DNA of 64,000 nucleotides from Coleofasciculus sp. B1-GNL1-01 (GCA_040220235.1 JAVJTO010000064.1), one strand, 5' to 3'; positions 49,569 through 60,062 are shown, counted from the stretch's first letter. The notes: generated by a model from the letters alone, not told the origin. Numbers and translations are program-made.

Positions 49569-49989
49569 AGTTTCCCTTTCCCCTCTGGGTTTGACCTCAC
49601 CTCCTGCTGACTTCCAAAGGCTAAACCGATTATTTATACGTTCAGCATGGGTGGAGCGACAACTGTATTAATGTTTACAGCGTTCACTCTGACAATTAAA
49701 CCGCAAGCGAGACGGAATGTCAGCTATTGTCATCTATCCTAGGTAATTAGCCCTCAACTAAAGTTGGGGCTAAAAGCTTAAACCCGTTAAAACGGGTTCA
49801 AAGAGCTACTCAGCAAGCTCGATTCTTACTTGAACTTTAGGCGATATTCCGTTTGAGCGTGCCATTCATTCTAGGTTAGTAGTAGACACCAAGCGTGTCA
49901 GAAGCTCCCGACAGCGCTGACTACAAACTACGCGATCGCAGGTTGTCCTTAACCGATGAACAGGAAATCGCTATCCGATTACCTAGACC

Positions 49990-50042
49990 TGAACGGCTGT
50001 CGGGTTGGGGGTTTTACGGATATGGGGAGGGAGTGCGATACG
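49990..50042 (+). repeat. HIP1-terminated ~53-bp direct repeat, copy 1
   Basis: TGAACGGCTGTCGGGTTGGGGGTTTTACGGATATGGGGAGGGAGTGCGATACG. Confidence 0.85.
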
Positions 50043-50111
50043 TGCTTCGCACAGGCTTCGCGATCGCGACCTTGGCAAGCTAAAGTTAGTTGTGGATACT
50101 CAAGATAACTG

Positions 50112-50336
50112 ATGAATTACCAAGACATCATCACCTTAGAACCCGGAAAGCGTGGCGGTAAGCCCTGCATTAGAGAGATGCGAATCACGGTCTATGATAT
50201 TTTAGAATACCTCGCATCCGACATGAGCCAAGAGGAAATTCTAGAAGACTTTCCCTATCTGACTAAAACAGACATCCTCGCTTGTCTTTGGTTTGCCGCT
50301 CAACGCGAACGTCTTACCGTTACCGTTCAACCGTGA
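50112..50336 (+). CDS. DUF433 antitoxin
   Basis: PGKRGGKPCIREMRITV, ILEDFPYLT..DI.ACL. Confidence 0.92.
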   Translation: MNYQDIITLEPGKRGGKPCIREMRITVYDILEYLASDMSQEEILEDFPYLTKTDILACLWFAAQRERLTVTVQP

Positions 50337-50534
50337 AACTCCTCCTGTTTGATCAAAACCTTTCCCCTCGCCTAGTGACTCGACTAACCGATTTGTATCC
50401 CAACTCAGTGCATGTTGATACATTAGGCTTAGGAACATCTTCAGACCGGGATGTTTGGGAATATGCTCGGCTCAACGCCTTCATTATTGTTACCAAAGAT
50501 TGCCGATTTTAGTGAGTTAAGCCATACTGGGTAA
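50333..50534 (+). pseudogene. DUF5615 PIN-like toxin, frameshifted and truncated
   Basis: GTG overlapping the DUF433 stop; LLFDQNLS, D.DVWEYA, IVTKD; an extra T shifts the expected ADFSELS out of frame. Confidence 0.8.
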
Positions 50535-50558
50535 AGAACCTCACCACACTACGGCGGT

Positions 50559-51662
50559 ATGGACTTTATCGACCAAATTAAATCTATCTCTCAGCAAATC
50601 TTAAAGCTAAGAGAGCAAATTCAGACAGAAGAAGCTACCAAAAGCGCTTTCGTTATGCCTTTCATTAATGCTTTAGGGTATAACGTTTTTAACCCAATGG
50701 AGGTTTGCCCTGAATTCACGGCTGACGTACCTGGACTAAAAGGGGAAAAGGTAGATTATGCAATCATCATGGATGAAAAGCCCATCATCTTGATTGAATG
50801 TAAATGGTGTGGAGGGAGTCTAGAGAACCCTAAGCATAACTCACAGTTGCACAGATACTTTCATACAACAGAGGCAAAGTTTAGCGTTTTGACCAATGGG
50901 ATTATCTATCGGTTTTACACCGATACAGAGAAACCCAACATCATGGATGAAAAATCATTTTTTGAGTTCAACATGTTGGACTTCCACGAATCCAATATTA
51001 ATGAACTCAAGCGTTTTTCCAAATCAAGCTTTAATTCGGGTGAATTGGAAGATGTTGCCAGGAATCTTCTCTATACTAAAGAAATTAAGCGTATCATGAC
51101 AGAGCAACTGGCTGACCCATCTCCTGAATTCGTTAAGTTTTTTGCCAGTCAAGTCTATTCTGGGAGGCTGGCTGCATCGGTTATGGAAAGGTTCACAGAT
51201 ATAACCAGACGGTCACTAAAAGAATTTATTAACGAGCGCATTACAGAAAGGCTAGCGGCTGCTATTAACACACCAGAAACCTCTACACCATCAACTGAAG
51301 GGCAAGAGGTTGAATCTGAATCCTCTTCAGACGAAGGAATAGTGACCACAGAAGAAGAGTTGGAAGCTTTTCATATCGTCAAAGCGATTCTACGTGAAGT
51401 TGTAGATATTGGACGTATTGAGTACAAAGACACCAAAAGCTATTTTGGTGTTAATCTAGATGGCAAGGCAACAAAAACTATTTGCCGACTGCGGCTTTTT
51501 CCTACAAAAAAATCTATTGCCATTATTGATTCTGAAGGGAAAGAAGCCAAGAAAGTCCTCTCAAGCTTGAATGAAATTTATGGGGTTGCAGGAATATTAA
51601 AAGACAGAGCTAGATATCTAGCCCAAGATGAGACAACACAACCTGAAGTTGTTGAACAGTAA
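50559..51662 (+). CDS. Type I restriction enzyme HsdR N-terminal-like endonuclease protein
   Basis: TEEATK..FVMPFI.ALGY, EKVDYAI, LIECK, QLHRYF, LTNG..YRFY, IVTTEEE. Confidence 0.85.
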   Translation: MDFIDQIKSISQQILKLREQIQTEEATKSAFVMPFINALGYNVFNPMEVCPEFTADVPGLKGEKVDYAIIMDEKPIILIECKWCGGSLENPKHNSQLHRYFHTTEAKFSVLTNGIIYRFYTDTEKPNIMDEKSFFEFNMLDFHESNINELKRFSKSSFNSGELEDVARNLLYTKEIKRIMTEQLADPSPEFVKFFASQVYSGRLAASVMERFTDITRRSLKEFINERITERLAAAINTPETSTPSTEGQEVESESSSDEGIVTTEEELEAFHIVKAILREVVDIGRIEYKDTKSYFGVNLDGKATKTICRLRLFPTKKSIAIIDSEGKEAKKVLSSLNEIYGVAGILKDRARYLAQDETTQPEVVEQ

Positions 51663-51757
51663 CTCATGATCTGCTTTGGATAAGTCTAAACAAAAAGATC
51701 TAGATATCGAATCCGATGTAATCCATCTGTACAGCGATCGCGACTTTACTCAAAAAT

Positions 51758-51810
51758 TGAAACGCTTTCGGGTTGGGGGTTTTGCGGATATGGGGAGGGA
51801 GTGCGATCGC
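51758..51810 (+). repeat. HIP1-terminated direct repeat, copy 2
   Basis: TGAAACGCTTTCGGGTTGGGGGTTTTGCGGATATGGGGAGGGAGTGCGATCGC. Confidence 0.85.
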
Positions 51811-51900
51811 TCTCCTCCTGCTCCCTCAGCAAAAGAGGAGGTGGCACAACCGAAGAATGACAACTCTCTCCGAACTGGCACAACAAAGAGTCGGCAAAAC

Positions 51901-52227
51901 ATGAAAATCCCTGATGATGCCATCATTCCTGATACTAAATTAACTCGCTATCTCCTAGTCAAGAGAGAACAAGACGATAAATCAAACTTTTTGGCACAGG
52001 CGGGATTTACACGGGATAATCCCGACCAATTAAAATCCGCCATTCGTCAACTTGCCGATACAGTAGAAGCGGTAGAAGATAGAAGCAATGAATATGGGAC
52101 GTTCTACCGTGTCAAAGGTCAACTCATGGGTGTCAATAACACAAACTTGGAAGTAATCACAGTCTGGCTGAACCGTAAAATTGATAACCAATTCCAGTTT
52201 ATTACTTTAATTCCCAACAAGGAGTGA
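51901..52227 (+). CDS. DUF6883-like protein (putative toxin)
   Basis: ATG at 51901; AIIPDTKLTRYLL, K..FLAQAGFT, YG..Y.V.G, ITVW, FITLIP. Confidence 0.7.
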   Translation: MKIPDDAIIPDTKLTRYLLVKREQDDKSNFLAQAGFTRDNPDQLKSAIRQLADTVEAVEDRSNEYGTFYRVKGQLMGVNNTNLEVITVWLNRKIDNQFQFITLIPNKE

Positions 52228-52481
52228 CACTAGAAATGCTTGAACTTTACCAGCGCGTTGTCCTATCTCGCAACCTACCAGAACATCACCTGCAAAAAGG
52301 CGATGTTCTCACTCTGATTGATTATGTGCCTCACCCTAGCGGTGGCGAAGATGGCTATATTTTGGAAGTTTTCAATGCTGTGGGTGAATCGATTAATGTA
52401 ATTGCTGTGCCGATGGGAGCAGTTCAAGCCTTGAAAAATAATGAAATCCTCACTGTTCGTTCTTTAGCTGAGGCGAGTTAG
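52224..52481 (+). CDS. DUF4926 protein (putative antitoxin)
   Basis: LYQRVVL.RNLPEH.LQKGD, GYILEVFNA.GESI.V; overlaps the upstream stop. Confidence 0.8.
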   Translation: MTLEMLELYQRVVLSRNLPEHHLQKGDVLTLIDYVPHPSGGEDGYILEVFNAVGESINVIAVPMGAVQALKNNEILTVRSLAEAS

Positions 52482-52673
52482 TAAAACTTAAACCTGCTCT
52501 CGCGCTAACCATGCAGCAGACAGCAATGACTGTTGAATATCTTCGGGTTCCAAATAGGGATAATCTTCGATTATTTCCCCCACTGTTTTACCATTTGCCA
52601 CTAAATTTAAAACTAATGAAACCGGAACTCGCATTCCCCGAATACAGGCTTACCCGCTACTTTAACCGAAACC

Positions 52674-52725
52674 TGAAACGTTGTCGGGTTGGGGGTTTTG
52701 CGGGTTTGGGAGGGAGTGCGATCGC
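52674..52725 (+). repeat. HIP1-terminated direct repeat, copy 3
   Basis: TGAAACGTTGTCGGGTTGGGGGTTTTGCGGGTTTGGGAGGGAGTGCGATCGC. Confidence 0.85.
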
Positions 52726-52846
52726 TCTTTTCATGAGCAGTCGCCTAAAAGTTCTAGGGGAAACAGGCGAGACGCGATCGCAAATCTCACCTCAACCCAG
52801 CCAATCACATCCCTAATCTGAGTTCTAGCTTGGTAAGAAAATGGCT

Positions 52847-55800
52847 TTACTTCCACTGTCGCCCAACCTCCTGAATCGCACGAGCTGTTGCGGCTAATGC
52901 TTCTTTCCCACCGAGAGCGATGATCACAGGACTTAATGCTGAGATATCTTCTAGTAGGTTTCTACGAATACGGTAAGCTAAAACGTCAAGGCTCTCTTTC
53001 CATAAGGAAAAGTCAAAATAGGAGGGTTTAAGGTTTGGTAGTAATCTACTGAGAGCCTCGGCACGGTAATATGCATCTGGTATAGTCCGTGCAGCTTCTA
53101 GCGCTTCAGGTAGAATTTCAGGGAAATGGGGTACAATTTCTGAGAGAACCTGGGCGCGGTGTCTCTCATCTGGTATAGCCCATGCAGCTTCTAGCGCTTC
53201 AGGTAGAATTTCAGGGAAATGGGGGGCAATTTCCGAGAGAGCTGATGCCCGGTGATACTCATCTATAACCCGTGCAGCTTCTAGCGCTTCGGGTAAAATT
53301 TTTGGCAAACGAGAGGCAATCTTAATCAGAGCTGATATGCGGAAATATTCATCTGGTATAACCCGTGCTGCTTCTAGCGCTTTGGGCAGTAGATTTTCAG
53401 GTAAATGAGGGGCAATCCTACAAAGATCTAATCCGGGGAAAAACCCACCTGATATAGCCAGTGCTGCTTCTAAGGCTTTGGCAAGTAGACTTTCAGGTAA
53501 ATGAGGGGCAATCCTAGAAAGAGCTAATGCACGGTTAGGCTGATCTGGTATAGCCAGTGTTGCTTCTAGCGCTTCGGGAAATAGACTTTCAGGTAAATGG
53601 AGGGCAATCCCAGAAAGAGCTAATGCGCGGTTAGGCTCATCTTGTATTGCGCGTGACGCTTCTAGCGCTTCGGCAAGTAGATTTTTTGGTAAATGAGGGG
53701 TAATCCTAGAAAGAGCTAATGCACGGTTAGGCTGATCTGGTATAGCCAGTGCTGCTTCTAGCGCTTCGGGAAATAGACTTTCAGGTAAATGGAGGGCAAT
53801 CCTAGAAAGAGCTAATGCGCGGTTAAGCTCATCTTGTATTGCGCGTGACGCTTTTAGAGCTTTGGCAAGTAGATTTTTTGGTAAATGAGGGGCAATCTGA
53901 CTCAGAGCTGATACTCGGTTATGCTCATATGGTATAGCTAGTGCTGCTTCTAGAGCTTTGGGTAGACTTTCAGGTAAATGGGGGGCAATCCTAGAAAGAG
54001 CCGATACGCGGTGTCCCTCACCTTGTATTGCCAATGCCGCTTTTAGAGCTTTGGCAAGTAGACTTTTTGGTAAATGGGGGGCAATCTGACTCAGAGCTGA
54101 TACGCGGAAATACTCATCTTGTATTGCTATTGATGCTTCTAGGGCTTTGGCAAGTAGATTTTCTGGTAAACGAGGGGGTATCTGACTCAGAGCTAATGGC
54201 CGATTCCTCTCATCTTGTATAGCCAGTGCTGCTTCTAGGGCTTTGGAAAATAGACTTTCAGGTAAATGGGGGGCAATCTGACTCAGAGCTAATGCGCGGT
54301 TCTGCTCATCTTGTATTGCTAGTGCTGCTTCTAGGGCTTTGGGTAGACTTTCAGGTAAATGAGGGGCAATCTGACTCAGAGCTAATGCTCGGTTCTGCTC
54401 ATCTTGTATAGCCAGTGCTGCTTCTAGAGATTCGGGTAAAATTTTGGGAAAATAAGGGGCAATCCGACTCAGAATGCCAAACCGGTTTCTCTCATCTTGC
54501 ATCGCGTGTGAGGCTTCTAGGACTTTGGCAAGTAGATTTTTGGGTAAATGAGGGATCATCTGACTCAGAGCAAATGCCCGGTTCTGCTCATTGTTTATTG
54601 CTAGTGATACTTCTAGAGCTTTATCAAGTAGATTTTCAGGTAAATAGGGGGTAATCCTACTTAGAACAAATGCCTGGTTCTGCTCATTTTGTATTGCCAG
54701 TAATGCTGCTAGCACTTTGAGACGTAGATTTTCTGGTAAATGGAGAAAAATATCACTCAGAGCTAATACGCGGAAATTCTCATCTGCTATAGCCAGCGCT
54801 GCTTCTAGCGCTTGAGGTAGTAAAGTCTCAGGTAAATGGGGTGCAATTTTCCCCAGAGCTTCTGCTCGACTACTTGGCTCTTGTTTCTGTTGAGCATAAG
54901 CTAAACCCTGTTCTGGCGTCCATATCTGCTTCTCCACCAGCGCCGCCATTAATTCAGCCGGAATATTCTCTGCCAAAGAATTAAGAGATGCAACAATCAA
55001 GGCATAGCGGCACTGGAGTCCAATGGATTCTGATGGTTTCTCCTCATACATCTGTTCTGCTAATCGCCAAGCTCGTGCCACATCGGTGACAAAGTTTCCC
55101 AGTTTCCCCAGTCTGTCGCACGCCTCATACCACGCATTACGTCCTTGAGGTGTTGAAGCTTGTAAAAGTTGATGTAATTCTTGGGATTGACCTGCTTGCT
55201 CTAAATGCCAACTCAAATAGTTATGAATATAACCATCATTCGATAATGTGTACCATTGTCCATTTTCAGTCTTAGCACGGTAACGCTCCAGAAACGCTGC
55301 ATGAGCCTCTTTTAACCTTAATCCCAGTCCTGGTAATTCCTCCGATTGAGTCGGGTTAACACTATCGGTTAACAACTCCTTAGCTCGGTCATGCATTAAA
55401 TCATGGATGCGATAAGTCGGCTTCTCTCCCGGCTGCACCGCTCCAGATAACAGCAGTGCTTTAGAACGCAGCGTTCGCAGAATCGCCCCAGCTTGTCGCG
55501 GTTTCACTTGCCAGAGAATGGCGGCTGTTTGTTGTCCAATGGCAGCATCTTCAGGTAAAACACCTAACCAAGCAAACTGCTGTAACTGTTCCGGAGATAA
55601 CTGCCGTAAACTCAAGTTAAATGATGCGTTTAAGCTCAGACGCTTACGAGTTTCTTCACAACTGGCACTCCCAGCAGCACTATCATCTAATGTCTCTAGT
55701 CGTGCAACTTCAGCCTGGAAGTCCTCTAATAATTCCCACCACTCCACACCCTCAGCGATTTGAGCCGCCGCTAGTTCTATAGCTAATGGCAGATACCCTA

Positions 55801-56584
55801 ACGCCTGTGCCAAGTCTAGAGCTTGTTTCTGCTCCTCCGAGGACATCAGCATTAGAGGTCTACATTTATTCAACAACTCCAGCGCCTCGGCTGGACTCAT
55901 CATGTCCAAGTCATAGCGAATGGCTCCCCGCACGGGAGCTTCACGGGTGGTGACTAAAACCCGACAGTTTGACCCTCCCACCTGGAACGGTTCGATATCT
56001 TCCGATTTCCAAGCATCATCGACAACCAATAAACTACGTTTGTCATAAAGTAGGGTTCTCAGATGCGTCGAAGCGGCTTGGGGAGTGGTGGGTTTATAGT
56101 CAAAGTCTCCTAATGCGTGAATCCAAGTCGCCAGAAATGAGAGGATATCCGGTTGTTGACCCAGTGTTACCCAGAGTATCCCATCGGAAAAGCGTTGATG
56201 AATATCGGCGTCATGAGCCAGTGCTGTGGCTAACACGGATTTGCCAATACCACCCAGTCCATAGATAGCACTCACCACTAACGTTCCCGGTGTGGTTTCT
56301 CCCGTTTCTAGGAGTAATTTTTTCAGTTCCCGACGCGGTTGGGAGCGCTCGACAAAGTTGGGGGGTAATGGGGGAGCCTGAAAGGGTTTGCCTACCCATT
56401 TAGGTTTAGTGCCAAAATTAACAGTCCCATAATTCTGGAAGCTGTTTTGATTTCCATGAACCTCACCAACCGCCGTACCAATTGTGTTTTGATCACCGGA
56501 ACTACCGATATGACCTTGATTATCAACACTGCCAACATCGTCACCAAAGGTGTATTGTTTTATCTGGCTTTCATGCTCACTCAT
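52847..56584 (-). CDS. NB-ARC (STAND) NLR-like protein with short N-terminal low-complexity motif and ~19-20 helical repeats
   Basis: FVER, GLGGIGKS Walker A, LLVVDDAW Walker B, LVTTR, LGYLPLAI, IHDLM; C-terminal 31-32-aa repeats. Confidence 0.92.
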   Translation of the reverse strand: MSEHESQIKQYTFGDDVGSVDNQGHIGSSGDQNTIGTAVGEVHGNQNSFQNYGTVNFGTKPKWVGKPFQAPPLPPNFVERSQPRRELKKLLLETGETTPGTLVVSAIYGLGGIGKSVLATALAHDADIHQRFSDGILWVTLGQQPDILSFLATWIHALGDFDYKPTTPQAASTHLRTLLYDKRSLLVVDDAWKSEDIEPFQVGGSNCRVLVTTREAPVRGAIRYDLDMMSPAEALELLNKCRPLMLMSSEEQKQALDLAQALGYLPLAIELAAAQIAEGVEWWELLEDFQAEVARLETLDDSAAGSASCEETRKRLSLNASFNLSLRQLSPEQLQQFAWLGVLPEDAAIGQQTAAILWQVKPRQAGAILRTLRSKALLLSGAVQPGEKPTYRIHDLMHDRAKELLTDSVNPTQSEELPGLGLRLKEAHAAFLERYRAKTENGQWYTLSNDGYIHNYLSWHLEQAGQSQELHQLLQASTPQGRNAWYEACDRLGKLGNFVTDVARAWRLAEQMYEEKPSESIGLQCRYALIVASLNSLAENIPAELMAALVEKQIWTPEQGLAYAQQKQEPSSRAEALGKIAPHLPETLLPQALEAALAIADENFRVLALSDIFLHLPENLRLKVLAALLAIQNEQNQAFVLSRITPYLPENLLDKALEVSLAINNEQNRAFALSQMIPHLPKNLLAKVLEASHAMQDERNRFGILSRIAPYFPKILPESLEAALAIQDEQNRALALSQIAPHLPESLPKALEAALAIQDEQNRALALSQIAPHLPESLFSKALEAALAIQDERNRPLALSQIPPRLPENLLAKALEASIAIQDEYFRVSALSQIAPHLPKSLLAKALKAALAIQGEGHRVSALSRIAPHLPESLPKALEAALAIPYEHNRVSALSQIAPHLPKNLLAKALKASRAIQDELNRALALSRIALHLPESLFPEALEAALAIPDQPNRALALSRITPHLPKNLLAEALEASRAIQDEPNRALALSGIALHLPESLFPEALEATLAIPDQPNRALALSRIAPHLPESLLAKALEAALAISGGFFPGLDLCRIAPHLPENLLPKALEAARVIPDEYFRISALIKIASRLPKILPEALEAARVIDEYHRASALSEIAPHFPEILPEALEAAWAIPDERHRAQVLSEIVPHFPEILPEALEAARTIPDAYYRAEALSRLLPNLKPSYFDFSLWKESLDVLAYRIRRNLLEDISALSPVIIALGGKEALAATARAIQEVGRQWK
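53030..54860 (-). repeat. Intragenic 93-96-nt tandem repeats encoding ALEAALAIxDExxRxxALSxIAPHLPExL
   Basis: Visible at both DNA and protein level. Confidence 0.9.
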
Positions 56585-56825
56585 TACGCCCAGAAACCCT
56601 ACTCACTTTTCACAAGACATCTCGAAACCCTGTCCGATAAGCGTTGCTAAAGGTCAAAACTATTGCATTGGGTCAGGGCGGGTTTAGTCACATCTGGGTT
56701 AACCCAGAAAGGATAGTTGTCAAACCCGCCCCTACACTCTATCACTCAAAACAATATGCCGTGAAACGTCAGAGAAACTGTAGGGGCGCACTGACCTGCG
56801 CCCAATTCACTGACCTGCGCCTGAT

Positions 56826-57299
56826 TCAATCGTCAACGCTATATCCTTTTTTAGCCGTTTCAGCAGAGGAATCCGCTTCAGCTTCAACCCACCCCCTAAC
56901 CATTTCAATAGGAATACCAATAGGAGCAAACAACACTTTTAGCGCTTCAATACCACCTTCTTTCAGGGCATTACGGAGTCGGGTTCTGAATGTCGGATTG
57001 TGCTTAATTTCTTGTTGCAGCGTTACCACTAAAGCACTTTGTCTTTCAGTTTCAGTAGCATTCGGATAGGTTTGCTTAAGCTGTTCCAGTAGCTGCTGAA
57101 TTTCGGCGGCGGCTTGGGCTAGTGTTTGCTTTTGCTCTGGTGCATAGTTGTTAAAGTGCTGAAGATTTTTATAATCGCCTTTAACCTCACCCGCCCCACT
57201 GTTAATCGTGTTGGACTTACCAGAGCTGATGATATGACCATGACTTTCAACACTACCAACATCGCCATGAAAGTTGTATTGTTTCTTAGAGTCTACCAT
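56826..57299 (-). CDS. Small protein: N-terminal motif shared with the adjacent NLR plus C-terminal helical domain
   Basis: KQYNFHGDVGSVESHGHIISSGKSNTINSGAGEVKG then QKQTLAQAAAEIQQLLEQL...ALKEGGIEALK...VRGW; GAGG upstream of ATG. Confidence 0.85.
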   Translation of the reverse strand: MVDSKKQYNFHGDVGSVESHGHIISSGKSNTINSGAGEVKGDYKNLQHFNNYAPEQKQTLAQAAAEIQQLLEQLKQTYPNATETERQSALVVTLQQEIKHNPTFRTRLRNALKEGGIEALKVLFAPIGIPIEMVRGWVEAEADSSAETAKKGYSVDD

Positions 57300-59350: not shown

Positions 59351-59450
59351 TGTCATTTGTTATTCGTCAGGGTTTGACAGGTAACGCTTTAAACGCTGGG
59401 GGGATTTTCAGGCTTAAGTGTATGATAATAATTTCGAGCAGGCGATCGCG

Positions 59451-60062
59451 ATGACATTAGCCACCAAGCGACTAACCTTTGAAGAATACCTGACTTATTC
59501 AGATGGGACGAACACCCGTTATGAGTTGGTGAACGGCGAATTAGTAGCAATGAGCATTGGTACTGGGCAACATGGAGAAATCATTGACTTTCTCTATCGG
59601 CAAATTGATGCAGCCATTAGGCGTACCGGACAAGACTGGATTGTTAGACCCGTAGCAATTGGTGTGCGATCGCCTCGTGCTGGCAAATGGGATACGTCTC
59701 GCATTCCTGATCTAACCGTTATTCCTAGCCAGCAGTGGCGCGAGTTAAGAAACCGCGAGGCGGTGATTGAACTTCACGAACCCCCTCCCATTTTAGTTGT
59801 AGAAGTGGTTAGCGAATCGACCAAGACTACTGATTATCGTGCCAAGCGGGTCGAGTATAATGTTTTAAATATCCCCGAATATTGGGTGATTGACCCATTG
59901 GAATCAAAAGTAACAATTTTTACCCTGATTGAGGAACTGTACGAAGGAGCCGAGTTTGCGGGTACTCAGCAGATTGTTTCCAGTACATTTCCAGAGTTGA
60001 GGCTGACAGCCGAACAGATTATTCAGGCTGGGTTAATTCCTCGTGACGAAGCAAACGAATAA
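59451..60062 (+). CDS. Uma2 family (DUF820) endonuclease
   Basis: LTFEEYL, RYELVNGEL, RIPDL, VVEVVS, DY..K..EY...IPEYWVIDP. Confidence 0.93.
   Translation: MTLATKRLTFEEYLTYSDGTNTRYELVNGELVAMSIGTGQHGEIIDFLYRQIDAAIRRTGQDWIVRPVAIGVRSPRAGKWDTSRIPDLTVIPSQQWRELRNREAVIELHEPPPILVVEVVSESTKTTDYRAKRVEYNVLNIPEYWVIDPLESKVTIFTLIEELYEGAEFAGTQQIVSSTFPELRLTAEQIIQAGLIPRDEANE

Follow-up and report, generated by a model that had tools for sequence, protein, structure and literature searches.

Known two-gene systems and the Coleofasciculus locus

To our knowledge, a prion-like fold transmits an immune signal only in NLR-associated amyloid motifs, and the bacterial motifs have so far been tied to executioners of the Bell/Bab type, with the motif at the C-terminus. 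In Bell-BASS/NLR pairs, as described in the parts of Dyrka et al. (2020, 10.1101/2020.01.06.895854) consulted here, adjacent co-oriented genes of a multicellular bacterium encode an NB-ARC or NACHT protein with internally conserved repeats and a small partner. A short G/N/Q-rich motif, belonging to one of several families (bacterial amyloid signalling sequences, BASS1-10), is present at the NLR N-terminus and in the partner, where it lies C-terminally after an N-terminal Bell (HeLo-like) domain; in these published pairs the small partner is the executioner. In the E. coli abortive infection system Bab/Agp (BASS11; excerpts of Ibarlosa et al. 2024, 10.1101/2024.11.07.622273), a motif is likewise common to two adjacent genes and the sensor activates its partner through it; Bab carries a pore-forming-type N-terminal domain, and phage defence has been shown experimentally. 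Judging by these portions of the two reports, adjacent-gene amyloid-motif signalling is experimentally established. The fungal NWD2/HET-S, HRAM, sigma, PP and PUASM pairs (Wojciechowski et al. 2022 preprint, in part) follow the same logic, with an N-terminal motif of the NLR templating the motif of the neighbouring effector; the effector-side motifs described there are all C-terminal, and the effector domains are HeLo, HeLo-like, sesA or PNP_UDP.

A second kind of coupling is found in effector-associated domain (EAD) conflict systems of multicellular prokaryotes and in cyanobacterial TRADD-N systems (passages of Kaur et al. 2020, PMC7159879, and 2021, PMC8195603), where the same small globular element occurs on the N-terminus of an NTPase and on its neighbour. 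The organisation is one of a constant module plus variable partners, drawn from a TIR, CHAT, REase, TRADD-N, pentapeptide, HEAT and STAND repertoire; both the organisation and the repertoire resemble what we describe below.

The window (the whole stretch of 64,000 nucleotides analysed, from Coleofasciculus sp. B1-GNL1-01) contains two collinear neighbouring genes on the minus strand, separated by a gap of 241 bp. The upstream small gene (56826..57299) encodes 157 residues: an N-terminal tag (residues 6-49, 57153..57284, minus strand; BLASTP and AlphaFold2) and a C-terminal helical domain, CTD (56847..57140, minus strand), with helices predicted by AlphaFold2 at residues 54-77, 83-100, 102-113, 117-127 and 131-151. 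Its nearest representative is 78% identical over 148 aa, and a Coleofasciculus MAG holds a 100% identical copy. The downstream gene (52847..56584) encodes an NLR-like STAND NTPase of 1245 residues, whose orthologues vary in length from 919 to 1245 aa. It starts with the tag (residues 9-50, 56435..56560, minus strand; BLASTP), followed on the same strand by an NB-ARC nucleotide-binding domain (residues 85-294, 55703..56332; Pfam PF00931, E 1.6e-22, 80.4 bits against a cut-off of 23.5) and an APAF1_C-type helical domain (residues 424-474, 55163..55315; PF17908, E 1.5e-6, 28.6 bits against a curated cut-off of 22.8). This succession of P-loop NB-ARC, helical domain and repeats is that of the NB-ARC (AP-ATPase) clade of STAND NTPases. 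GLGGIGKS and LLVVDDAW, which we take to be the Walker A and Walker B motifs, can be read directly in the translation. The repeat array (53165..54847, minus strand) comprises 17.7 tandem copies of 96 nt (32 aa), 76% matching (Tandem Repeats Finder). From our reading of their sequence the repeats appear HEAT-like, and the array is presumed to be the sensor. The sole Pfam match within the repeats, a CUE domain, was judged spurious.

Both ORFs lie on the minus strand, at the positions given in a first-pass annotation of this DNA. That annotation had described an NB-ARC protein without an N-terminal enzymatic domain, which is borne out in that a whole-protein Pfam search finds no domain ahead of residue 77, and a partner whose motif is N-terminal and precedes a cyanobacterial helical domain, which is the arrangement we see.

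The likeness to Bell-BASS pairs extends to gene adjacency and orientation, the repeat-bearing NB-ARC protein, and a short motif on the NLR N-terminus and in the small partner. Three features differ: the partner motif precedes a C-terminal helical domain (and is mid-protein in fused forms), the partner domain matches no named family, and the tag is about 42 aa long, whereas roughly 25 aa is typical of BASS. The domain order is also reversed relative to Bab/Agp, and the present system is known computationally; the fungal effector domains have no sequence relation to the CTD system. This arrangement suggests a variant of NLR-associated amyloid-motif signalling that has so far gone undescribed, the motif lying upstream of a new C-terminal domain and not after Bell. 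An excerpt of a published note on GFP fusions in Podospora reports that motifs placed N-terminally did not form foci.

The tag common to both proteins

A BLASTP comparison of the two proteins aligns NLR residues 9-52 with small-protein residues 6-49 without gaps (23/44 identical, E 2e-12), and all remaining HSPs have E above 8. Recounting by hand the 42 columns of the first-pass annotation returned the 23/42 identities reported there, and its statement that similarity is confined to the motif agrees with the HSPs. In a search of the 8.66-Mb Coleofasciculus genome (52,618 six-frame ORFs, minimum length 50 aa), the only non-self match of the tag better than E 2.5 was the N-terminus of the adjacent NLR (E 8.5e-10); by this exclusive linkage the two genes form the motif-coupled pair that had been proposed. 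At the DNA level the two copies of the tag are ~67% identical; no identical run exceeds ~10 nt and synonymous sites differ, which favours conservation over recent conversion.

The same tag type, T1, also heads an unrelated family of P-loop/WD40 STAND NTPases, where it is 66-81% identical, and eight proteins from the two unrelated STAND classes all have the same residue at 21 positions within residues 9-44. Its presence on a second class and this invariance argue that the tag is a mobile N-terminal module under selection. The T1 consensus shows side-specific variants, one on the NLR side and one on the CTD side, and so do the motifs of the fungal pairs in the part of Wojciechowski et al. 2022 consulted.

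Compared with the genome's long ORFs, the tag pair is rich in G (2.6x), N (2.2x), H (3.1x) and S (1.8x), contains L at 0.11x, and lacks P and R altogether; the residues that show the composition bias are G, N, S, V, P and L. According to the available part of the Dyrka preprint (10.1101/2020.01.06.895854), BASS motifs are rich in G/N/Q/V and poor in P/L, and the tag resembles them in composition; measured against the broader profile of such motifs (G/N/Q/V/I high, P/L/K low), K is not depleted. In the AlphaFold2 model of the small protein the tag is disordered and a helical bundle follows it; residues 17-48 are modelled as coil without secondary structure (pLDDT below 50). The first-pass annotation had named a motif folded into a globular domain as evidence against its reading; the model, which leaves the motif unstructured, argues weakly against such a fold.

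Neither tag peptide matched any Pfam family at E<=10, RHIM, HET-s and sigma models included, and the whole proteins gave no RHIM match at E<=1. Two identities were considered and rejected. The tag has the positional logic of an EAD (EAD1-12, bacterial Death-like domains), but it is predicted to be disordered, and neither tag nor CTD matched an EAD or Death-like model in the Pfam collection searched, which we take to include EAD models. The RHIM, PP and BASS3 motifs have a G-phi-Q-phi-G core (Dyrka preprint, in part); by reading, no such core is visible in T1, and there was no Pfam RHIM match. As to BASS membership in general, five strings of 5-7 residues taken from tags T1, T2 and T5 had 0 occurrences in the accessible part of the BASS training-set supplement (PMC8086366).

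Tag matching across loci

The CTD is always preceded by a G/N/Q-rich segment, which comes in several discrete types; at least seven were found, each directly upstream of the CTD. We surveyed 102 related loci with a tag match cut-off of E<=1e-3. A tag of the same type was present in another ORF of the locus for 32 of the 99 assessable CTD ORFs, compared with 1/495 shuffled tags; recurrence in adjacent pairs with the motif type matched within pairs is what the first-pass annotation had suggested looking for. Among the 29 pairs with a non-CTD partner, the partner in 15 is a co-oriented downstream gene that carries the tag N-terminally (NACHT, NB-ARC, TRADD-N, CHAT or CHASE2 proteins) and in about nine a co-oriented upstream gene that carries it C-terminally (HEAT/TIR, NACHT or pentapeptide proteins); the remainder are internal, convergent or distant. 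The partners are conflict-system proteins: NACHT, TRADD-like_N with pentapeptide, CHAT, CHASE2, HEAT with TIR, and NACHT with HEAT. The cyanobacterial NACHT family of loci L013-L028 appears in the portion of the Dyrka group's NLR N-termini consulted.

For the window's pair, the tag of the own neighbour scores 49.3 bits and the next best 25.4. Across the 29 pairs, the own neighbour was the best of 100 tags in 14 and was not the best match in 15, which have common tag types; matching is therefore by type and not pair-specific. The same genome contains a second stand-alone tag-CTD gene, on contig C112, whose tag has exactly one genome-wide match (E 3.4e-5), at the C-terminal end of the pentapeptide protein encoded next to it on the upstream side.

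The match within the pair, the recurrence of types in neighbouring ORFs and the presence of T1 on the WD40 STAND NTPases make a homotypic coupling tag well supported. The linkage evidence, from the genome-wide searches and the matching across loci, is equally compatible with non-amyloid docking, in which the tag would be a short beta-augmentation or coiled oligomerisation tag, functionally equivalent to an EAD, and would build an NLR-partner complex of finite size with neither templating nor prion-like spread. The EAD principle provides a precedent, since there too the NTPase N-terminus and the neighbour share one element, and the closest copies are those in adjacent genes (passages of Kaur et al.), and the internal position of the tag in most family members, with 109 of the 150 representatives listed being fused forms, also fits. 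We consider docking of this kind rather unlikely: the tag is short, of low complexity and predicted to be disordered, unlike the globular EADs, it matches no EAD or Death-like Pfam model, and in composition it agrees with published amyloid signalling motifs.

Our preferred reading, to which we assign a probability of about 0.55, is a two-gene NLR module of a filamentous cyanobacterium, in which the ~42-aa G/N/S/V-rich tag acts as a homotypic, probably amyloid-like coupler between the STAND switch and its CTD partner. Ligand binding to the hypervariable 32-aa repeats would trigger oligomerisation of the NB-ARC domain and so cluster the otherwise disordered N-terminal tags. The clustered tags would take on a beta-rich, probably amyloid-like fold and recruit or template the matching tag of the partner, by which the CTD would be clustered or switched on as the output. 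In this proposal the sensor would act on its partner through the shared motif, as in Bab/Agp. On this reading the pair is one case of a wider cyanobacterial system in which at least seven tag types address the CTD to neighbouring NACHT, NB-ARC, TRADD-N, CHAT, CHASE2, TIR/HEAT or pentapeptide proteins. Against the amyloid-like coupler stand the length of the tag, the missing match to Pfam amyloid or RHIM models, matching by type and not by pair, a CTD position that suits an adaptor too, the lack of a transmembrane segment and of a significant fold match in the CTD, the instability of the pair within the genus and the Podospora observation on N-terminal motifs. We infer amyloid templating, the direction of signalling, an activity or effector role of the CTD, and a role in defence or cell death. 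Should the tags form amyloid, they would add to the known bacterial signalling amyloids, reveal a class missed by pipelines that search effector C-termini alone, and provide coupling tags that are orthogonal by nature; should they not, they would still make up a compact natural docking code for the assembly of immune complexes.

The CTD and its fused and split forms

Residues 61-140 of the small protein are predicted to form a folded block (AlphaFold2, pLDDT 79-89). The CTD has no family match in Pfam, NCBIfam, PADLOC or PDB, structural comparison gave no significant fold match (the best Z of 7.7 is not significant for a helical bundle), and we found neither a transmembrane segment nor an enzymatic signature. 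The passages of Kaur et al. (PMC7159879, PMC8195603) consulted contain no mention of it. The domain nevertheless matches 1037 representative proteins (E<=1e-3) and occurs in 77/401 sampled cyanobacterial genomes; the tagged arrangement around it is repeated in many cyanobacteria with large genomes. Of the 150 representatives listed, 146 have it within 10 residues of the protein's C-terminal end and all 150 within 30. Usually it ends long pentapeptide, HEAT, NACHT-HEAT, TIR, CHAT, REase or kinase proteins, and in all-in-one NACHT-HEAT proteins it is placed after the repeats. The locus points to a second partner domain, widespread and without a family name, with the motif on its other side; a set of discrete types of motif comes with it, and its broad range of partners has members in common with the TRADD-N, TIR and CHAT conflict systems.

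As the usual end of long multidomain proteins, the CTD may be a constant module, adaptor or output, and not an executioner like Bell; its position after NACHT-HEAT repeats and TIR, CHAT or REase domains suits an adaptor, or a constant component, no less well than an executioner. Of the earlier description of the small protein as a possible membrane-damaging or adaptor effector, the coupled partner stands, and the effector role is qualified accordingly. One could go further and regard the small protein as a guard or regulator, with the CTD capping the NLR N-terminus through the tag, or tying the NLR to a cellular structure, and the real output lying elsewhere. The CTD is indeed a constant C-terminal module on proteins that already have effectors or sensors (TIR, CHAT, REase, kinase, NACHT-HEAT), it has no membrane segment or enzymatic signature, and one congener retains the NLR without the CTD gene. 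We regard a guard or regulator as improbable, given that the genome-wide tag search (52,618 ORFs) gives no sign of another partner and that the small partner is the executioner in the NLR/amyloid-motif pairs covered by the available part of the Dyrka preprint. That the NLR has no other recognisable effector domain speaks for a guard or regulator; against it, an NLR lacking any effector would be left without an output.

Split forms (a protein ending in the tag plus a tag-CTD protein) coexist with fused forms in which tag and CTD follow in one chain, as is expected if tag-tag binding can replace the covalent link. A methionine stands just ahead of the tag in 92/109 fused representatives, compared with 33% expected, mostly as MAE or MSE as in stand-alone starts; its retention suggests that tag-CTD is a cassette that has been repeatedly fused and split. 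Within the genus the NLR/tag-CTD pair is unstable. In one congener (G217) the CTD gene has been deleted by recombination between the two tag copies and the NLR kept, another has only the tag gene, truncated and unlinked, and a fourth has no T1 match. The natural fused and split variants and the deletion between tag copies are ready-made experimental contrasts.

The retained methionine and the deletion in G217 would also suit a tag that is the footprint of gene fission or fusion and cassette shuffling, a duplicated junction with no signalling role beyond, at most, that of a substrate for recombination. Such a neutral footprint would decay, whereas proteins of two unrelated NTPase classes keep 21 invariant positions; both tag copies retain the peptide pattern although their DNA is only ~67% identical, and type matching repeats in many independent loci with different partners. 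A footprint is therefore very improbable. Returning to the tag as an amyloid-like coupler, we tentatively extend it to a prion-like network in large-genome, mostly filamentous cyanobacteria, in which at least seven orthogonal amyloid-type 'address' motifs might wire diverse immune sensors and effectors to a common CTD output; the domain order would be opposite to that of all known amyloid-signalling effectors, and the coexistence of fused and split forms would mean that the motif can stand in for a peptide bond.

A separate observation concerns the 241-bp intergenic spacer, which contains a repeat hairpin and was counted against the coupled-pair reading, co-transcription being putative. The hairpin is a palindromic repeat element, GGGGCGGGTTT ... 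AAACCCGCCC, at 56675..56732. Contigs from four RNA libraries, which may include DNA, break at this element, and a spike in depth together with loose ends is seen at 56669-56736, as expected of a multi-copy element.

An NLR gene and a small gene with a common N-terminal segment

The first-pass annotation had placed a co-oriented gene pair on the minus strand of the window, and ORFs were found at both positions: an NLR of 1245 residues (52847-56584) and, 241 bp upstream of it, a small protein of 157 residues (56826-57299). BLASTP of the two proteins aligned NLR residues 9-52 with small-protein residues 6-49, ungapped, with 23/44 identities and an E value of 2e-12. This was the only significant HSP, all remaining ones being no better than E 8; the earlier description of an ungapped similarity (23/42 identities) restricted to the N-termini was accurate. 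We refer to this G/N-rich segment as the tag. The NLR contains an NB-ARC domain (residues 85-294; Pfam, E 1.6e-22) and an APAF1_C helical domain (residues 424-474; Pfam), and its C-terminal half features 17.7 tandem copies of a 96-nt (32-aa) repeat with 76% matching. Pfam found no domain upstream of residue 77, in agreement with the claim that an N-terminal enzymatic domain is missing. PADLOC assigned no family to the NLR, and no family name for the small protein was obtained from Pfam, NCBIfam or PADLOC. A Coleofasciculus MAG carries the small gene at 100% identity.

When the small protein's tag was searched against the six-frame translation of the 8.66-Mb source genome (52,618 ORFs, minimum length 50 aa), the sole other match better than E 2.5 was the N-terminus of the adjacent NLR (E 8.5e-10). 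In DNA sequence the two tag copies share ~67% identity; uninterrupted matches extend over ~10 nt, and synonymous positions differ. This pattern suits a peptide conserved over a long time better than a recent gene conversion between the copies. A duplication that left the shared segment behind as a functionless footprint is, in our estimate, very improbable. A recombination cassette as the main function in the window was rejected because the tag copies are only ~67% identical in DNA, although one congener, G217, does show a deletion of this kind.

In an AlphaFold2 model of the small protein (70-row alignment), the tag core (residues 17-48) shows no secondary structure and stays under a pLDDT of 50. 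The prediction thus keeps the tag out of the globular domain; a motif folded into such a domain had been named beforehand as speaking against the signalling reading, and the model weakly supports the motif on this point. Helices follow at residues 54-77, 83-100, 102-113, 117-127 and 131-151, with block pLDDT values of 79-89 over residues 61-140, so that the motif indeed precedes a helical C-terminal domain (CTD), as first proposed. A complex prediction for three copies of NLR residues 1-58 and small-protein residues 1-56, run with their own alignments, returned 'no answer' (score 0.01, mark 0.32), which speaks neither for nor against a complex.

The spacer between the two genes contains a palindromic element, GGGGCGGGTTT...AAACCCGCCC (56675-56732). 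Contigs from four metatranscriptomic libraries span both genes with 95-100% identity and similar depth, although contigs alone cannot prove transcription or a joint transcript. The library contigs break at 56669-56736, where there is a roughly 10-fold spike in depth and several different loose ends, and the palindrome is therefore evidently a multi-copy dispersed repeat; it could possibly also act as a transcript-processing or stabilising hairpin. A scan of the minus strand between the genes found no consensus promoter or terminator. The flanking genes encode a SpoIID-like protein, a Uma2-family nuclease, an HsdR_N-like protein and small DUF433-like, DUF6883 and DUF4926 proteins. Those at 50112-52481 and 59418-60062 have a mobile or defence flavour (a DUF433-like pair, HsdR_N-like, DUF6883 with DUF4926, and the Uma2-family nuclease), and the DUF433 pair we take to be toxin-antitoxin-like. 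ORF translations at 49956-50108, 51676-52227 and 52511-52816 contain a common string (RVGGF-x-DMGRECD / CRVGGFAGLG), which suggests another short dispersed DNA repeat in the window.

The C-terminal domain and the tags ahead of it

Exhaustive phmmer searching at E<=1e-3 detected the CTD in 1037 representative proteins. Of the 150 representatives listed, 146 have a CTD that ends 10 or fewer residues from the C-terminus. The CTD profile matches 77 of 401 sampled cyanobacterial genomes (1-9 copies per genome) and 47 of 156 genera. The positive genomes are concentrated in families with genomes of 4-10 Mb, and one family of 29 genomes gave no match to the profile. Structural comparison of the CTD model with the PDB by Foldseek returned nothing at E<=1e-3. 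VIA-align wide scored highest (Z 7.7) against C-terminal domains of TetR regulators, a value in the noise range of helical bundles, and no fold was assigned; HeLo, MLKL and Bab-like folds were not among the fold matches listed. Searches with the CTD profile against PDB sequences, and against Pfam at E<=10, gave chance-level helical matches only. The ESM Atlas holds the CTD in 'hypothetical protein' clusters only, and a TCAD2 lead from the same source (0.89) was not confirmed by Pfam.

The region ahead of the CTD was scanned with Pfam in 85 of the 150 listed representatives. Pentapeptide repeats are the commonest, and HEAT repeats, NACHT with HEAT, WD40, protein kinase and TIR with TRADD-like_N also occur, as do a DpnII/MboI-type REase, CHAT, alpha/beta hydrolase, dynamin-like GTPase, SLOG and HTH; 20 of the 85 have no Pfam family there. 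The window's genome encodes five CTD proteins, namely the small protein, a stand-alone protein on contig C112 and three fused copies whose tags have no second match in the genome. Its contig C44 encodes an all-in-one protein of 1149 aa with the order NACHT-HEAT-segment-CTD. Since the CTD follows sensors as well as effectors, it may serve as a constant module with an adaptor or output function, and not as a pore former of the Bell kind; no membrane segment was detected in it. The role of the CTD is the weakest part of our interpretation, and that the small protein is instead a guard or regulator of the NLR seems improbable to us. In two other genomes (L117, G013:C1; L120, G136:C80) a CTD variant has a hydrophobic C-terminal end with many small residues (…LIGEAVVTVVKSALQFLGLPIP), and a membrane-active output would be easier to reconcile with this variant than with the CTD of the window.

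Every representative among the matches listed has a G/N/Q-rich stretch of about 30-45 aa ahead of the CTD, and these stretches sort into discrete types, which we label T1 to T5. T1, the window's type, reads K-x-Y-T-F-x-G-x-VGSVENQGHI-x-SSGN-x-N-x-IG; T2 contains ...AQFAGGLVNADTVNA-x-QIGGNI..., T3 SYQSKYDQRN..., T4 ...NFHASVYGVAGNVEGD and T5 DRNINTGGGNYNERIQGDYVQGNYY, and additional types are centred on GDTYNVGQAGAVGKYARSD and SGNFGIGHMSGGEIK. The end of T2 (...A-x-QIGGNI-x-NY in L013, L023, L028 and many representatives) resembles what we take to be the RHIM core (IQIG..N.); T2 has no Pfam RHIM match at E<=10. In 92 of 109 fused representatives a Met occurs 15-70 residues before the CTD, shortly in front of the tag, compared with 33% expected from the Met frequency elsewhere in the same proteins, and its context is mostly MAE or MSE, as at the starts of stand-alone proteins. 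These features indicate that genes have been fused here repeatedly and left a trace, or that an internal start is used, which would also yield a free tag-CTD protein. Tag and CTD together therefore behave as a cassette that has been repeatedly fused and split, or is translated from an internal start.

Tag matches between neighbouring genes

Species genomes contributed 23 loci to a survey of recurrence, and metagenome contigs, scanned with an 11-row CTD alignment, contributed another 79. The segment of each CTD protein was compared with every other ORF in the same locus at E<=1e-3. A match was found for 32 of 99 assessable CTD ORFs (105 in total), compared with 1 of 495 composition-shuffled segments; since many contigs are short, 32 is a lower bound. 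The arrangement recurs in adjacent gene pairs, which the first-pass annotation had proposed as a check, and the finding reaches well beyond the window. In 29 pairs the partner has no CTD. Fifteen of these partners are co-oriented downstream genes with an N-terminal match, as in the window, and the intergenic gap is often 3-90 bp; about nine are co-oriented upstream genes with the match at the C-terminus, and the remainder are internal, convergent or distant. Pfam identifies the partners as conflict-system proteins. N-terminal tags occur on NACHT (L013, L023, L050, L055, L070), TRADD-like_N with pentapeptide (L020, L061, L073), CHAT (L048) and CHASE2 (L072) proteins, and C-terminal tags on NACHT with HEAT (L047), HEAT with TIR (L045, L046), pentapeptide (L097) and DUF6232 (L068, L080) proteins.

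The upstream arrangement is exemplified by C112 in the window's own genome (L002 / L113:2947-4917), where a 491-aa pentapeptide protein ends in the tag DFHAPVVSVGNQGVQGNLATENQG and the next gene encodes a 138-aa stand-alone tag-CTD protein starting with the same tag. The single genome-wide match of this protein's tag is the C-terminal end of its upstream neighbour (E 3.4e-5). The final residues of the pentapeptide protein resemble the start of a truncated CTD helix. In 14 of the 29 pairs, none of the 100 segments matches the partner better than that of its neighbour. Within T2 and T5, which are abundant, the neighbour's segment is one of the better matches; matching is thus by tag type, as in published motif families, rather than by individual pair. 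In the window's pair the neighbour ranks clearly first (49.3 bits vs 25.4). On a metagenome contig (L050, 10288 bases), the T5 tag (DRNINTGGGNYNERIQGNYVQG) is present in at least seven neighbouring genes on both strands, encoding two tag-CTD, one NACHT, two pentapeptide and two unnamed proteins, and the tag seems to link an entire gene cluster at this locus and not just two genes.

Fused X-tag-CTD proteins, in which another domain X precedes the tag, coexist with split forms consisting of X-tag and tag-CTD proteins, as expected if tag-tag association can replace the covalent link. That the tag is a homotypic coupling element joining a STAND switch to a CTD protein is strongly supported by these sequence comparisons. 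We put the probability that the coupling is mediated by an amyloid-like fold at roughly 55%. In favour of such a fold are the amino-acid bias of the tag (G 2.6x, N 2.2x, S 1.8x, L 0.11x, no P), the disorder predicted for the monomer and the genomic arrangement of the tagged genes. Against it stand the length of the tag, which exceeds that of typical BASS motifs, the lack of any match of the tags to the Pfam RHIM, HET-s or sigma models, and the absence of five tag-derived strings from the examined part of a published BASS training set. A docking tag that couples the two proteins with no amyloid involved is a possible but distinctly less probable reading. If the fold is amyloid-like, NLR oligomerisation would cluster the N-terminal tags, the clustered tags would form a β-rich nucleus, and this nucleus would recruit or template the partner's tag, whereby the CTD would be activated or concentrated. 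This mechanism, which we consider the most likely one, follows the established NLR/amyloid-motif paradigm, as set out in the consulted parts of two preprints (Dyrka et al., 10.1101/2020.01.06.895854; Bab/Agp, 10.1101/2024.11.07.622273).

In the portions of Dyrka et al. 2020 and Wojciechowski et al. 2022 covered here, all effector-side motifs are C-terminal, whereas the motif of the window's partner lies upstream of its domain. The literature covered, which included parts of these two papers and of Kaur et al. 2020 (PMC7159879) and 2021 (PMC8195603), contains no account of the CTD or of effector-side motifs in an upstream position, although an earlier mention may exist in the journal version of Dyrka et al. 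or in supplements on bioRxiv.

The T1 tag on other NTPases and in congeners

The first 56 residues of the NLR matched 12 longer proteins. Eight are NB-ARC orthologues of differing lengths (919-1245 aa), and the other four belong to a STAND class of another kind, which combines a P-loop with a membrane-like stretch and WD40 repeats and carries the T1 tag at its start with 66-81% identity. Twenty-one positions between residues 9 and 44 are invariant in eight aligned proteins. Judged by these alignments, the T1 tag is a module of its own. NLR-side tags are closer to one another than to CTD-side tags, a likeness to the fungal PUASM motif, for which side-specific variants are described in the part of Wojciechowski et al. 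2022 covered here.

T1 is rare: within the order, 6 of 301 genomes carry it, and four of the six belong to the genus of the window (including the window's own). In G217 the NLR (L116, G217:C208:6660-9806) starts with MADSKKEYTFGDDVGS..., the start of the small gene joined to the NLR tag, and BLASTN found no counterpart of window positions 57183-56561. We read G217 as a naturally occurring deletion in which the two direct repeats that encode the tags recombined and the CTD gene was lost; the query used in the T1 survey gave no further match in this genome. In the congener G136 the pair is accompanied by a T1-CTD gene that is not linked to it, G153 has no more than a truncated form of that unlinked gene, and G098 has no T1 match. 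This presence/absence variation indicates that the partner gene is dispensable for survival, and it resembles the birth-and-death dynamics of NLR loci described in the consulted part of the preprint by Dyrka et al. (10.1101/2020.01.06.895854).
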